Shown one piece after another: positions 39,556-45,105 of a stretch of 64,000 nt of DNA. This DNA is from an uncultured delta proteobacterium (GTDB taxonomy: Bacteria; Desulfobacterota; Desulfomonilia; UBA1062): the NCBI GenBank assembly GCA_963785235.1, contig CAWAUM010000001.1:64001-128000 (forward strand), written 5' to 3'. Under the pieces are notes generated by a model that was not told the DNA's origin, ran no database searches, and saw only the letters and a program-made list of their open reading frames with translations. A program made the translations under genes and the position numbers. Each line of letters opens with the position of its first letter. Position 1 is the first letter of the stretch.

Positions 39556-39780
39556 AAAGATCTTCCCCTAAAAAGGATATTAAATTAATGTGTTAAATGT
39601 AAACTATGCAATATGGATCTTTTTGAGTTTTGTTACCATAGCATCTACACTTCAAATGGAGTATAGAGAATATCTATCTATTATCTGTGATTTTGACCTT
39701 ACGGTCAATATGAATTCAGATGTTATCCCTCCTTGAAGATGAGTCTGCAGAGATAACCTTTGCTTGTAAGGAGGGAAAAA

Positions 39781-42700
39781 ATGAATATGTGCACTGTATG
39801 CGGTGCTCCCGTGGTCCCGACCGGCCGCTATTGTCATCAGTGCGGTTCGGGTCTTCATGATCACCAGGCCAGATCCGAATACCGCTTTGTTACTATACTC
39901 TGTACGGATTTAAGCGGGTACACCCTGTTGTCGGAAAGGTTGGACCATGAAGAGCTTCGTACATTCATGGCGAAATTATTGAGCGAAACAACGCTGGTCA
40001 TCAGGAGATTCGGCGGCACTGTGGAAAAGTATATCGGCGATGCGGTAGTGGCAATATTCGGCAATACTAAAGCGAGAGAAGACGATCCTATAAGAGGTAT
40101 CCTGGCCGCCAAGGAAATACACAAGATTGTTGAGGGGATGAATATTCTCCTCCCGGAAACCTGCAACATCCGTCTGAATATGCATACCGGTATCAATACA
40201 GGTGAGGTTCTGATGGACACCGGTATGCCTACCGACTCCATCCACGGAACACTGGGTAAACCTATCAATATTGCATCCAGGCTGTGCGATTTAGCCGCCG
40301 ATGGAGAGATACTGATAAGTGAGGCGCTCGTAACAGAAACCATGCGTTATTTTCAGCTCGAATGGTTAGGCAGAAAGATGCTCAAAGGATTCCGAAAACC
40401 TCTCCATGTGTATAAGGTTATCCATGAGAGATCCGTCCCGCTTGCAGTGCATAGGATTGGCGGTGTTACCTCGCCCATGGTGGGCCGCGAGCATGAACTG
40501 TCTATGCTTCTATCGAAGGCGAGGGATCTTCAATCAGGGAGAGGCGGTGTAACGTGCATCATCGGCGATGCAGGTGTTGGTAAAAGCAGGCTGATTGAAG
40601 AATTTAAGGTAACTCTTGATGAGAGTGTACCATTTATAACAGCAACCTGTTTCGATCATACAAGCTCTAAGCCGTACTTTCCCTTTTCGAGACTCATACA
40701 GGTATTATTGGGGCTCGATAGTATGCATGGCAGCAAAGAAGAAATTGCTAAGGCCTTAACCCGACATGGACTGTCCGGGGAGTATGCCGCTCACCTTGTC
40801 TTATTCATGGATTGTGCACTACCTCCGGTGGTGAATCTCCCGATATCTTCAAGGAGAAAGGCAGTGATGCCATGCTATGGCTGCTCAGTTCTGCGGCTTT
40901 GAATCAGCCTACAGTTTTCTGCATTGAGGATATCCATTGGGCTGACCAGAGCACACTTGATCTTCTGACGTATCTAATCCATAGGTGGGATAAGTCCTGT
41001 CCAAGTCTGCTGCTCCTTACGCACCGACATGGCGTGGCGAGCCCCTTTTTAGCTGCCCGCCTTGTCCTGCGGGAGCTCGGTGAGCTAGAAGTGGGCACGA
41101 TGCTTAATAATATGCTTAATGCCGTCCGGGTCCCTGATACGACGGTTAGCTCTCTGGCAGAAGCAACGGGAGGCAACCCATTCTTTGTTGAAGAGATGGT
41201 CAACTACCTCCTGGAAAAGGGGGTGGATCTATCCGACCATTGCCAAATCGGCCGGTTGGCTGAGCTGCCCACAACCTTACATGGTCTCATCTCTTCGCGG
41301 CTTGATCATATGGGGGCTGCTTCCAAGAGGATACTCCAGGAAGCGGCACTCATTGGAAGGATATTTACTGAAACCCTATTGGCCTTGGTTTGTTCAGAAA
41401 AAGATGTCTTGAAAGAGGGCTTGGATGAATCAGTCAAACACGGATTCATCCAATCTGTCAGTAAGGGGGAATACATCTTCAAGCATGAGATTACCCGTGA
41501 TGTAGCAAGCAGGACCCTCTTGAAGAAAGAGAGGATCAGGCTGCACAGGAAGATCGCCCTGGCCATAGAAGATAGTTGCGGAATATGTTTAAAGGATCAT
41601 GCCTCAGAACTTGCCTATCACTTCGGGAAGGCGCAGGAACATTTAAAGGCGCTTTATTATCATATGGAAGCCGGCAAACACTGCCAGGCAACAGGTGCCT
41701 GGGTCGAGGCCGGTGCGCATTTTTTATCAGCAGAACAATATCTCCATGCCGACAAAACACTGCCCGGTGGAGAAGAGCTGCTTGTGGCCATACAAGAAGG
41801 GATCTGGAGATGCTATCGTGTGTTCAATCCGGGCCGGGCTATTGTTGCCCTGGAAGAGCTTGCGGGCTATTACCGTCTTAAGGGCCTTCATGAGGAAGAG
41901 GCCTTTTGTTCCATCCGGCTCATTAATCTCTATTCCCAGAAGGGTCTTTTTCATAAGGCAAAAGAGAGCTATGACTTTGCCTTAGCCATCATCCGTGACA
42001 ATCCGGTATTGATTGCGGCAACACATACTGTCTATGCCTACACCTACACCTTTCTCGGTAAGCCCCTTGATGCGTTGCGCCTGCTTGATGAGGCCCGGCC
42101 TGCTCTCGATGCATCGGACCGGTTCCTTTATACCATCAATGTCCTGACTACTTTGGCTGCAAGCGTATGGAAGGGTGATATGGAGGGTTCACGTTCCTGG
42201 TACGAACAGCTAAAGAGATTCAGTAGTGCATATATGGATATTGATCTCATGGCCGATATGTGGCTTGCCCACATATATTGCCTTGAAGGGAGATTTGAAG
42301 AGGCCCGTAGGGTTTTTGAGGATGTATCTTCGCGGGAGATGAAGATTGGGATGCTCGCAGGTGGGCTTTCCTATTTGAGGATCCAGGGCTCCATCTATTT
42401 CCGGTGTCGGTATTTCGGAGACATAAAAGGCGCCAGTGCAGACCTGGAGGCATTTAATGCGCTGGATGGAGAAATATACTACCCGGGCTCGTTAAAGGAT
42501 CTATACCGTGCATGGATTGCATTGGAAAAAGGCAATCCGTCGCAGGCAAAGGAGCTCATCAATACTGCACTACCAGGCCTACGGGATGGTGTTGCCAACC
42601 GTGTGCCCTATGCCCTGAACGCACTGGCTGAGGCATACTGCCTCCTGGGTGATTATAACGCTGCACAGAGTACTGTCCGGGAAAGTATAACCTGGAATGA

Positions 42701-42995
42701 GCAAAGGGGCAATGTGGACCAGCTCATCTGGGCATTAAGGGTATTTGCCGAGATATGTACCTCACAAGGTCAATATGATACTGCCCATAAAGCGCTATCG
42801 CGGGCATATCCCCTTGCCTGTTCATCCATGATGAAACCGCATAAGGCTTGGATCATTGGTTCATGGGGGAATCTCCTCAAGGCGGCCGGTAAGTCATTAA
42901 AGGCGCAGCGGTGCTTTGGTAAATCGCTCAAGCTCTGGAAAGAGATGGGCAATCCGCTCCAGGAAAAACAAATGGCAAAAGAACTTAAATCCTGA
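39781..42995 (+). CDS. Zn-ribbon / class III adenylate-guanylate cyclase / STAND ATPase / TPR protein, frameshifted near 40810
   Basis: CTVC..CHQC; TDLSGYT, EKYIGD, GINTG, INIASRL; Walker A GDAGVGKS; Walker B IEDIHWAD; GGNPFFVEE; F.H; TPR-like helices. Confidence 0.88.
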
Positions 42996-43050
42996 TTTTG
43001 AAATAAATACACTATACACGACAGGTGGCCTTAAGCGCAAAATCCGGGAT
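42987..43050 (+). repeat. Internally deleted MITE-like remnant (TIR pair only)
   Basis: aaatcctgattttg ... caaaatccgggat; the cyclase TGA stop lies inside the left TIR. Confidence 0.55.
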
Positions 43051-43271
43051 AAATATCACAGACATTCCGGATGTTGCTTAAAACCTATGGACTGCAGTTC
43101 CTTTTTTGTAATCCAAGGGGCTCTTAATCCTTTAATCAAAGCGGTCTTACACGCCCTTCCCAGCTCACTTTTGCGGCGTTGCTGAAACACTGTTTTATTT
43201 ACATCACAGGGCTAATGTTTTTGTCATTGTGCTCGATAGGTTAAATTATAGCAGGGCTTTCATGCCTGAAC

Positions 43272-43284
43272 TGTTCTTTGACAA
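43272..43284 (+). promoter_or_regulatory. boxA-like Nus antitermination site
   Basis: tgttctttgacaa resembles rRNA-leader boxA (TGCTCTTTAACAA) at the head of a long structured leader. Confidence 0.45.
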
Positions 43285-43426
43285 CTTATGAAAGAGCCAT
43301 GTGTGCTCTTTGGCTCCAGAGGCCACACATGGGTAAAAGAGTAACTTAAAGCAGCAAAAAGCGCCCTTCAAGAGAAACAAAGAGGGAAAACTTGAGCCAG
43401 GATCTCCTTGAGAGGTCCCTCGGGCA

Positions 43427-43510
43427 CTCCTTCACAAGCCAAACCACAGGTAACTGTGGGACGGAAAGCCACGGGTCCATACCTAACGTAGGGTGGACAG
43501 CCGGGTCGCC
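43427..43510 (+). ncRNA. GEMM-I (c-di-GMP-I class) riboswitch aptamer 1; G at discriminator position
   Basis: G-CC-AAA-CC acag GUAA cugu GG GAC GG AAA GCC acggguc...gac AGCCGGGUCGCC; G43438 aligns with Vc2 G20. Confidence 0.9.
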
Positions 43511-43596
43511 TCCTTCAGAACCACACCATGGGTAACCATGGGCCGGAAAGCCACGGGTCCGAAAAAGTGCTCGGACAGCCGGGTTGCCTGAAAAGG
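43511..43596 (+). ncRNA. GEMM-I riboswitch aptamer 2; A at discriminator position (3'3'-cGAMP type)
   Basis: A-CC-ACA-CC aug GUAA ccau GG GCC GG AAA GCC acgggucc...ggac AGCCGGGUUGCC; P1 uuca/ugaa; A43520 at the G20-equivalent position. Confidence 0.88.
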
Positions 43597-43610
43597 ATTC
43601 ACCAGCACAG

Positions 43611-43692
43611 CTACACCAGCCACACCATGGGTAACCATGGGCCGGAAAGCCACGGGTCCACACGGAGTGTGGACAGCCGGGTCGCCTGGAGA
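43611..43692 (+). ncRNA. GEMM-I riboswitch aptamer 3; G at discriminator position
   Basis: G-CC-ACA-CC aug GUAA ccau GG GCC GG AAA GCC acgggucc...ggac AGCCGGGUCGCC; P1 cca/ugg; G43619. Confidence 0.9.
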
Positions 43693-43714
43693 ACCTCATC
43701 AGAAAGGAGTTCCA

Positions 43715-44221
43715 ATGAATAGAACAAATCTACTTGCTGCCCTGTGTATGATCGCGATGCTCATACTACCGCAGGCAGGATTAGCCAAGATGGTGGCTTT
43801 GTCCGATGCCGATTTAAGCGAAGTCATCGGTCAGGCAGGTTTTGCTGAAGATACAACTACGACATTCAATTCGCATATTGACAACATGCCTACACAGTAC
43901 GGACTCTTGAATCTCAGCGACGTAACTATGCAGGGCTCCATTGTCAATAGGGCTCCCACGGCCACGATCACGAATACAGCCATGACCAATTTAGCTGTTC
44001 CTGGCTTCGTTCCTGGCTTCGCTATGCCGGGTCTCGGATTGATGGGTCTCGGGTCTATGGGTCTCGGCACACACCTGATCGATATGACCATCAACATCGA
44101 CAAATACACCATCGGCGCCATTCGCATAGGGAACGATACGACTGGACCGAGCTTGGGCGATTTCGCGATGTACGGATTTAAGGCAGATATCAAAGGGACA
44201 GTATCAATCACGGCGCATTGA
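43715..44221 (+). CDS. Secreted DUF6160/FilA-like beta-rich protein
   Basis: AAGGAG RBS; Sec signal ending GLA; mature N-terminus M.ALSD.DLS.V.GQAG; C-terminal SLGDF...G....GTVSITAH. Confidence 0.7.
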   Translation: MNRTNLLAALCMIAMLILPQAGLAKMVALSDADLSEVIGQAGFAEDTTTTFNSHIDNMPTQYGLLNLSDVTMQGSIVNRAPTATITNTAMTNLAVPGFVPGFAMPGLGLMGLGSMGLGTHLIDMTINIDKYTIGAIRIGNDTTGPSLGDFAMYGFKADIKGTVSITAH

Positions 44222-44304
44222 AGCGCATGATGTTACTCTTTTACCTAATCTTTCCCTTGTAATCCCAAGGAGACTATCTTTTGAAAGATCTTCAAAGGTG
44301 GGCA

Positions 44305-45105
44305 CTATTGGCGGATGAGCCTTGCCCTGTCGATATCATCTGTGTCTTTCGGGTGAGAGCTCCTCAAGGGATTTATATCGATGCCGCCCCGCCTGGTATA
44401 AAAACACCTGACAGTTAACTTGTCCGGCTTGCATCTCTCCATAATATCTAAAAATATCTGCTCGCACACCTCTTCTGCAAATCCTTCGTGATCACGGTAG
44501 GAGCAGATATATTTCAGCAGCGCCTCGTGATCGATGGTCCTTCCCTGGTAGCATATGGCCACACTCCCCCAGTCCGGCTGGCCTGTGATAGGGCAGTTGG
44601 TCTTCAATAAATCCGAGTAGAGTTCCTCCTCAGATAAGCCTTGTGAGCATGAGAGCAGGGCAGGGTCCCTTTGGAAGGTAGTAATCTGAATATCCCGGTT
44701 GTCCAGGCAGGTGCCAGCCGGATGAGGCCGACAGGTCATCTCGGGGAAGCCAGCCTGTTCAATGATTCGCACCGAGATCCATTCGGTTGACAGGATATGC
44801 TCAAGGTCATGCCGGATGATTTCTTCAACCCCTTTGGCCGAATCGAAATTCTCGAATGAGAGGCCGCCTAAGTAGAGCTTGAGGGATTTCGACTCCACAA
44901 TGCATTTGCTTTCAACGGGATAGACGATCTCGAGGATACCTATCCTGGGTTTGCCTTTGCTGTTAAGCCAGGATAGCTCATAAGACCGCCAGAGGTCATA
45001 CCCGTAGAGCTTATACCCGCAGGGCTTTCTTGGTATGGGATAAAGCACTGAAGGATCATGACCCTTGGGGTGAGGGATTTTATTGCCAAGCGGCATTTGG
45101 TTCAT
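44305..45105 (-). CDS. queF: NADPH-dependent 7-cyano-7-deazaguanine reductase (two-domain type)
   Basis: W..YELSWLN.KGKP, VESKSLKLYL, NCPITGQPDW, YTRRGGIDINP. Confidence 0.95.
   Translation of the reverse strand: MNQMPLGNKIPHPKGHDPSVLYPIPRKPCGYKLYGYDLWRSYELSWLNSKGKPRIGILEIVYPVESKCIVESKSLKLYLGGLSFENFDSAKGVEEIIRHDLEHILSTEWISVRIIEQAGFPEMTCRPHPAGTCLDNRDIQITTFQRDPALLSCSQGLSEEELYSDLLKTNCPITGQPDWGSVAICYQGRTIDHEALLKYICSYRDHEGFAEEVCEQIFLDIMERCKPDKLTVRCFYTRRGGIDINPLRSSHPKDTDDIDRARLIRQ

Follow-up and report, generated by a model that had tools for sequence, protein, structure and literature searches.

A conserved three-aptamer GEMM-I leader ahead of a DUF6160 gene in an uncultured Desulfomonilia-like bacterium, with an apparently recent change at the discriminator base of its middle aptamer

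Tandem arrangements of GEMM-I (c-di-GMP-I) riboswitches, which sense cyclic di-GMP (c-di-GMP), include triplets as well as doublets. One survey counts 347 doublets and 12 triplets (Sherlock et al. 2022, PMC9481103), and the one characterised triplet, Bc3-5 of Bacillus thuringiensis, is expected through stacking to give a more stringent, digital response (Zhou et al. 2016, PMC4759541). Ligand choice depends on a discriminator base. In a Geobacter GEMM-Ib aptamer an A20G change flips selectivity from cyclic GMP-AMP (cGAMP, also c-AMP-GMP) to c-di-GMP (PMC6456294), and an A-variant of Desulfobacca acetoxidans has acquired affinity for c-AMP-GMP while losing only slightly in affinity for c-di-GMP (PMC9481103). 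The element described here belongs to the GEMM-I class. It consists of three consecutive aptamers in the leader of a DUF6160 gene and lies in a 64,000-nucleotide (nt) stretch of contig CAWAUM010000001.1 (the window), from an uncultured Desulfomonilia-like bacterium, a relative of sulfate reducers. Since triple c-di-GMP-I arrays are already known, the triple array in itself is not new; what is new is a conserved terminator-less array of three or four aptamers in a framed cassette, with a discriminator change that appears recent and confined to one lineage.

An earlier note on this DNA had predicted a triple tandem GEMM-I leader, and covariance models agree. The aptamers follow one another on the + strand within 43427-43717, spanning 43428-43689. 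In a scan of the genome all three exceed the 35-bit gathering score of the Rfam c-di-GMP-I model, RF01051, with E-values from 5.6e-12 to 1.6e-9 (scores in Table 1), and they are the only RF01051 matches in this 3.9-Mb, 93%-complete genome. A window-wide Rfam scan at the gathering threshold returns aptamers 1 and 3 only; a local permissive scan returns all three, with the sister models RF03167 and RF03168 scoring under their own thresholds. The motifs that had drawn attention to the locus, a GUAA-capped hairpin, CGGAAAGCC and AGCCGGGUYGCC, are present in the sequence.

Strong covariation among homologues argues that the aptamers are functional and under selection. Among 85 distinct homologous aptamers, 97.6% of the cells in the alignment pair, and double-sided changes are found at 11 of the 20 pairs. 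None of 500 shuffles reaches the observed values, and in slid controls the paired share of cells is 21-48%. The homologues were scored with R2, a custom trimmed covariance model; a model that included the flanks, R1, lost every aptamer 1 through overlap with aptamer 2.

The distribution of the array suggests that it is old. GEMM-I elements are found in 19 of the 41 related genomes searched: in all 14 of the same genus (three in tandem in 11 of the 14), in 18 of 24 of the family and in none of 16 of the sister family. An R2 search of 48 loci gave 130 matches, and removal of duplicate records left 28 distinct arrays upstream of DUF6160 orthologs in Desulfomonilia-like metagenome-assembled genomes (MAGs). 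A DUF6160 ortholog lies downstream of every array checked. Twenty-four arrays have three aptamers and two have four (L058 and L059); the remaining two have two aptamers each: L017, which is cut by a contig end, and L013 (G014), in which an internal deletion has fused aptamers 1 and 2. Erosion is also seen in G001 (L011), where aptamer 1 is degenerate (45.8 bits, compared with about 80) and has A at position 20. The four-aptamer arrays, at 1105-1455 of both loci, come from MAGs labelled Desulfocicer and Desulfosudis; their aptamers 3 and 4 abut, directly ahead of the Shine-Dalgarno sequence. No mention of quadruplet arrays was found in the part of the Sherlock et al. survey drawn on here (PMC9481103). 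In another genus of the family, locus L004 (G023) has a single GEMM-I aptamer with the top Rfam score of all, 78.1 bits; the Shine-Dalgarno pattern was looked for downstream of this aptamer and not found.

Table 1. Features of the GEMM-I leader, its gene and the surrounding cassette, in window coordinates
Feature	Position	Strand	Remarks
Predicted sigma-28 (FliA)-like promoter	43213..43239	+	TAATGTTT, 11-nt spacer, CTCGATAG; ~215 nt upstream of aptamer 1
Leader hairpin A	43252..43268	+	Sequence variable, structure kept; read by eye
Conserved leader domain	43273..43345	+	GUUCUUUGAC pairs with GUAAAAGAG around hairpin B; 3' end GGUAAAAGAGUAAC (43332-43345)
GEMM-I aptamer 1	43428..43513 (core 43436-43510)	+	G43438 at position 20; RF01051 63.7 bits; R2 86.0 bits
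CCUCCUU junction, aptamers 1/2	43509..43515	+	Anti-Shine-Dalgarno-like; also 5' strand of aptamer 2 P1
GEMM-I aptamer 2	43510..43591 (core 43518-43588)	+	A43520 at position 20; RF01051 55.6 bits; R2 83.6 bits
Pseudo-Shine-Dalgarno UGAAAAGGA	43589-43597	+	3' strand of aptamer 2 P1
GEMM-I aptamer 3	43609..43689 (core 43617-43686)	+	G43619 at position 20; RF01051 53.6 bits; R2 84.9 bits
Predicted expression platform	43686..43717	+	Mini-hairpin 43686-43702, Shine-Dalgarno AAAGGAG 43703-43709, ATG 43715-43717
DUF6160 secreted-protein gene, 168 amino acids	43715..44221	+	Translation; Pfam PF19657 E 4.1e-7
3' untranslated region element GUUACUCUUUUACC	44232..44245	+	Exact reverse complement of 43332-43345 (inverted repeat I1)

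The discriminator bases had been read as G43438, A43520 and G43619, and the Rfam alignment places all three at the position-20 equivalent. G43438 and G43619 are the unpaired base immediately 5' of the first 2-bp helix (model position 11), and A43520 is the homologous base of aptamer 2. The equivalents of A47 and C92 are A and C in all three aptamers; the Vc2 numbering of these putative ligand-contacting bases (G20, A47 and C92) is assigned from the Rfam consensus lines. A43520 is not a base-call error, because the same A is present in the same aptamer of a second genome (G011) and in zero-difference contigs of three sequencing runs. These contigs cross A43520 in the DNA run X2 (43290-43550) and in the RNA-library runs X7 (43450-43560) and X9 (43451-43550); X7 and X9 come from another study, and X2 may be the sample behind the assembly of the window. 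G011 differs from the present genome (G000) at 27 of 1041 cassette positions (97.4% identity), and within aptamer 2 at 43570 alone.

The 28 distinct arrays contain 84 aptamers, and 81 of these have G at position 20. The A is found in the middle aptamers of G000 and G011, and position 20 also departs from G in the degenerate aptamer 1 of G001. Aptamer 2 is present in 27 distinct genome arrays and has G in 25 of them and A in two (G000 and G011); in all 11 metagenome arrays it has G. A pattern scan of metagenome contigs had returned 28 stretches, of which these 11 are genuine arrays, having aptamers together with the two flanking motifs. Twelve stretches with A at the discriminator place were rejected as A20 arrays because they have no aptamer context; among the stretches without such context that were inspected, five of five A-hits and one G-hit (L085) are unrelated sequence. 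In the nearest G-type relatives, little besides the position-20 base differs from G000 in the aptamer.

Aptamers 2 and 3 have a common signature throughout the genus which is missing from aptamer 1, and the duplications would accordingly predate the genus. The A is confined to G000 and its nearest relative, which points to a recent G-to-A change at 43520, apparently a single substitution in one terminal lineage. The earlier note had suggested a duplication followed by a specificity switch. The duplication of aptamers 2 and 3 holds, as an old event; however, the base change is much younger, and a switch of selectivity is unsupported.

The likely effect of the change can be judged from aptamers studied elsewhere. 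Vc2 G20A is bispecific, with dissociation constants of 53 nM for c-di-GMP and 120 nM for cGAMP, the wild type being picomolar; bispecificity is also seen in natural A-variants such as Cbe 1-2 (PMC6140456). Taken with the D. acetoxidans variant, these data lead one to expect a one-step G-to-A derivative to be bispecific and weaker for c-di-GMP, not selective for cGAMP. Aptamer 2 would most likely combine weaker c-di-GMP binding with a gained ability to bind cGAMP in vitro. The rule that A20 marks sensors of 3'3'-cGAMP is correct in so far as the known cGAMP-selective GEMM-Ib aptamers have the A, but A20 alone can give bispecific binding (PMC6140456).

A cGAMP sensor calls for a cGAMP source. 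Hypr GGDEF enzymes, which make 3'3'-cGAMP, are defined by Ser (or Thr) at position 348 in combination with a motif that reads GGDEF rather than GGEEF; the position was located by the Asn339/Ser348/Asp374 spacing (PMC6456294). A GGDEF search of G000 gave 16 matches, and among the best 12, which were translated, nine motifs are readable. Eight of these nine have Asp at the Ser348 equivalent and one has Asn; seven read GGEEF, and both that read GGDEF have Asp. The pattern is the same in the GGDEF proteins of G011, where the Asn variant is intact and of the GGEEF type. The readable motifs of G000 (93% complete) and G011 (88% complete) contain no Ser or Thr at this place, and the GacA-type synthase that the earlier proposal calls for was found in neither genome. 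No match to the SMODS family was found in the genome search. No DncV-like cyclase was matched either; this negative carries little weight, since the search found nothing in any control genome. It can be added that a GGEEF diguanylate-cyclase-like gene of G000 (contig C11, 289969-290412) with Asn for Asp at the base-recognition position contains an in-frame TAG, and that its ortholog in G011 (L069) is intact.

As no cGAMP synthase is recognisable in the cell, the leader would still be a c-di-GMP sensor. The earlier note had instead proposed a two-messenger logic gate. In a true gate of this kind c-di-GMP would be the ligand of aptamers 1 and 3, and aptamer 2 would be selective for 3'3'-cGAMP, or for a different dinucleotide containing adenine, made by an enzyme that was not recognised. 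We regard such a gate as very unlikely. It would explain why an otherwise intact aptamer 2 has A at the discriminator and why this A is kept in G000, in G011 and in the contigs of three runs, and the A20G flip in Geobacter GEMM-Ib gives it a precedent; it would also be new, as the logic gates of Sherlock et al. 2022, in the part of that paper drawn on here, contain no c-di-GMP/c-AMP-GMP pair (PMC9481103). However, no other orthologous array has the A in its aptamer 2, searches for Hypr GGDEF, SMODS and DncV-like genes were negative, and the same substitution in a c-di-GMP aptamer gave bispecific Vc2, natural A-variants being capable of the same (PMC6140456). The genome has three GEMM-I elements, all in one leader, compared with 17 in Geobacter (PMC6456294). 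Aptamer 2 thus shares the A at position 20 with GEMM-Ib but neither a host synthase nor conservation of the A among orthologs.

Loss of function is another way to read the A. Aptamer 2 could be a decaying redundant copy, crippled by G20A, in what is now a two-aptamer c-di-GMP switch. Arrays do erode in relatives, as the degenerate aptamer 1 of G001 (45.8 bits) and the fusion deletion of G014 illustrate, and G20A lowers the c-di-GMP affinity of Vc2 by roughly three orders of magnitude (PMC6140456). Against this, aptamer 2 keeps all conserved nucleotides and pairs except position 20, and its single difference between G000 and G011 does not suggest decay. It is also not simply dispensable, because its P1 helix contains the conserved anti-Shine-Dalgarno sequence. 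Decay is therefore an unlikely explanation.

The arrangement of the leader points to one expression platform shared by the whole array. Intrinsic terminator-like sites were not found on the + strand in 42900-44400, and the separate terminator that each aptamer of a Bc3-5-type array would have is not seen here. The spacing is 7 nt between aptamers 1 and 2 and 28 nt between aptamers 2 and 3. The junction of abutting aptamers contains CCUCCU in 26 of 26 arrays. In aptamer 2 this junction forms P1, as CCUCCUU(CA) pairs with UGA(A/G)AAGG directly after the aptamer; the duplex reaches -7.9 to -9.6 kcal/mol, compared with -3.3 to -6.5 kcal/mol for shuffled sequence (24 of 24 triple arrays), and the pairing is kept although its register shifts among arrays. 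Aptamer 1 has no local P1 partner, and in none of the 24 triple arrays is its flank duplex more stable than that of shuffled sequence; the P1 duplex energy of aptamer 3 is likewise no better than shuffled. Given the lack of separate terminators, the abutting aptamers 1 and 2 and the restriction of P1 to aptamer 2, the array would have a single shared platform, which is probably translational. The linker after aptamer 3 is nearly invariant across the genus, and a similar linker is found in distant arrays. The junction can also pair with the Shine-Dalgarno AAAGGAG, and the energy of this duplex is -7.0 to -9.5 kcal/mol across all 26 arrays. Of 20 leaders folded to minimum free energy, 12 have the Shine-Dalgarno paired with a CUCCU(U) motif.

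The reading that we prefer, with somewhat better than even confidence, is that of a conserved triple c-di-GMP-sensing leader on the DUF6160 gene, without internal terminators and with one shared translational platform, in which the middle aptamer is weakened or bispecific. A sigma-28-type promoter would drive transcription of the leader and the gene, so that three c-di-GMP-I aptamers act on a single small secreted-protein gene. The conserved anti-Shine-Dalgarno would toggle between a decoy, in the ligand-stabilised P1 of aptamer 2, and the true Shine-Dalgarno. Control would be exerted at translation initiation, and the shared platform would give a steep response to c-di-GMP; A43520 would leave aptamer 2 weaker for c-di-GMP and able to bind cGAMP in vitro. 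In three-aptamer arrays the junction anti-Shine-Dalgarno faces the pseudo-Shine-Dalgarno, a layout that suggests an ON switch, and in four-aptamer arrays it faces the true Shine-Dalgarno, which suggests an OFF switch. Whole-leader folds and duplex energies gave no decision between ON and OFF. GEMM-I switches on flagellar and chemotaxis genes, such as Cd1 and Bc1, are reported to be OFF switches.

It should be noted that several points weigh against this reading. On the side of the ligand, A20 is the sole feature common to all known cGAMP-selective GEMM-Ib aptamers, and aptamer 2 has it; the persistence of the A in two lineages and in contigs of several runs is compatible with selection. The DncV-like search lacks a positive control, and with completeness at 93% for G000 and 88% for G011, the assemblies could lack a synthase, or it could be of a type not yet described. 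On the side of the mechanism, the absence of a convincing P1 in aptamers 1 and 3 leaves their coupling to the platform unexplained. The duplex of the junction with the Shine-Dalgarno has z scores of just -0.9 to -1.6, and the Shine-Dalgarno is paired elsewhere in 8 of 20 minimum-free-energy folds. Rho-dependent termination or RNase processing is a possible alternative to translational control.

The leader upstream of the aptamers is also structured. At the place of hairpin A, differing complementary arms are found in 20 aligned leaders; RNAalifold made no such call. The conserved domain that follows contains hairpin B, with arms at 43297-43313 and 43316-43332 (inverted repeat I2), and its RNAalifold consensus over 20 leaders has 22 pairs, four of them with double-sided changes. 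Rfam gave no family for the leader (43100-43440) at E up to 10. RNA-library contigs are uninformative on leader transcription, with none in X7 and almost none in X9 over 43150-43436. Summed contig depth in the same two runs is greater over the aptamers than over the open reading frame (ORF); no inference is drawn from it, since conserved aptamers of other organisms add to the depth.

The last 14 nt of the leader domain form an inverted repeat with an element in the 3' untranslated region (UTR), so that the pair brackets the array and the gene. The 3' copy begins ten bases past the stop codon here; all 25 loci examined have the pair, with the 3' copy 10-15 nt past the stop codon. These loci omit arrays L017, L051 and L052 and include MAGs whose protein is just 32% identical. 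In nine of ten variant copies the change is A-to-G, which keeps a G-U wobble in the sense RNA and makes a mismatch on the other strand. The two elements would probably pair as 5'UTR and 3'UTR of one transcript, in competition with the local leader stem. They might instead act as DNA, serving a recombinase that inverts the cassette or forming paired operators, with regulation largely at the DNA level and the riboswitches secondary. The perfect 14-bp inverted repeat around the cassette in all 25 loci speaks for this, but the orientation of the cassette relative to the upstream promoter and queF is constant in all aligned loci, the wobble is kept only in sense-strand RNA, and no recombinase gene is found among the scanned neighbours. 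We consider DNA sites extremely unlikely. Contig alignments at the cassette list no inversion joints; as contigs drop rare forms, this is no evidence against inversion. A further scenario, which we hold to be highly doubtful, would make the recent G-to-A change the birth of a mixed-input gate, with aptamer 2 as an adenine-dinucleotide sensor served by a synthase that escaped recognition; separately, the 14-nt 5'/3' UTR pairing would come into play once the full transcript is made.

The regulated gene is monocistronic, and queF converges on it from the - strand (44305-45105). Its product has an N-terminal signal-like segment. ESM Atlas returned only DUF6160 or unnamed clusters for the protein, and the AlphaFold2 model, built from 14 sequences, has a mean predicted local distance difference test (pLDDT) score of 55.2, which is too low for a fold search. 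A perfect 12-nt tandem duplication (43997-44020) is found in the Gly/Pro-rich middle of the ORF. A second DUF6160 paralog is encoded on contig C12 (286341-286664; L061) without GEMM-I aptamers, and has a weaker sigma-28-like motif ~240 nt upstream.

The promoter of the leader is predicted to be of the sigma-28 type, with a transcription start that would lie near 43247. Of 20 aligned leaders, 19 keep both blocks at this spacing. The two 8-mers agree with what we take to be the FliA consensus in 7 and 5 of their 8 positions, respectively, and the spacing is right. The genome encodes a FliA ortholog (276.7 bits, cut-off 189.6) and flagellin-like genes, and one of these, on contig C4 near 1421, has a near-identical motif upstream. 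A relaxed sigma-28 pattern has six sites genome-wide, about three being expected by composition; they include this locus, the flagellin-like gene and a small ORF with a weak flagellar-rod match. The conserved motif, the FliA ortholog and the motif at the flagellin-like gene together suggest that the DUF6160 gene is probably part of the late flagellar regulon. Further upstream, a protein with adenylate/guanylate-cyclase, AAA and TPR domains (39760-42995) is encoded as two overlapping ORFs (39760-40902 and 40812-42995) that match successive parts of one NCBIfam model, a TOMM kinase/cyclase fusion; the pair may be a frameshift or a split gene.

Complementary 5' and 3' UTR segments are present in the icaR mRNA of Staphylococcus aureus, where the 3'UTR reportedly masks the Shine-Dalgarno. 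The present transcript resembles icaR in having such complementarity. However, its 5' partner lies upstream of the riboswitches and far from the Shine-Dalgarno, and the pairing is predicted from complementarity. To our knowledge, strictly conserved 5'UTR/3'UTR complementarity has no counterpart among riboswitch-controlled mRNAs.

Among GEMM-I systems, the Geobacter GEMM-Ib riboswitches resemble this leader in fold, in the A at position 20, in their Desulfobacterota-type host and in their tandem arrangements (Hallberg 2019, PMC6456294). They differ in that Geobacter has the Hypr GGDEF GacA alongside its many elements; here the A is limited to one aptamer of one leader, its orthologs carry G, and the search for a Hypr GGDEF was negative. 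The aptamers of D. acetoxidans, like those described here, are near-identical sisters which differ only at the discriminator base. There the variants belong to separate clusters, each paired with an adenosylcobalamin (AdoCbl) riboswitch and followed by terminators, whereas here the G and A forms stand in one leader (PMC9481103). No published tandem gate of mixed c-di-GMP and cGAMP aptamers was found in the literature searched, the scope of which did not extend to earlier GEMM-Ib papers and supplements. The array of G002 forms with those of G000 and G011 a natural before/after pair of near-identical arrays, suited to gauging G20A in its native context.

The closest described system is Bc3-5, in which three similar GEMM-I aptamers likewise occupy one 5'UTR ahead of surface or secreted-protein genes (PMC4759541). 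However, Bc3, Bc4 and Bc5 are complete riboswitches with their own terminators, and act as transcriptional ON switches (PMC4759541). In the present leader no terminators were found, just 7 nt separate aptamers 1 and 2, and a clear P1 is limited to aptamer 2; the two systems also differ in phylum, regulated gene and promoter type. The leader ties c-di-GMP to a probable sigma-28 gene of the DUF6160 family. A terminator-less array of three or four aptamers on one platform is unlike the characterised triple switch, and offers a test case for the integration of signals by stacked aptamers.

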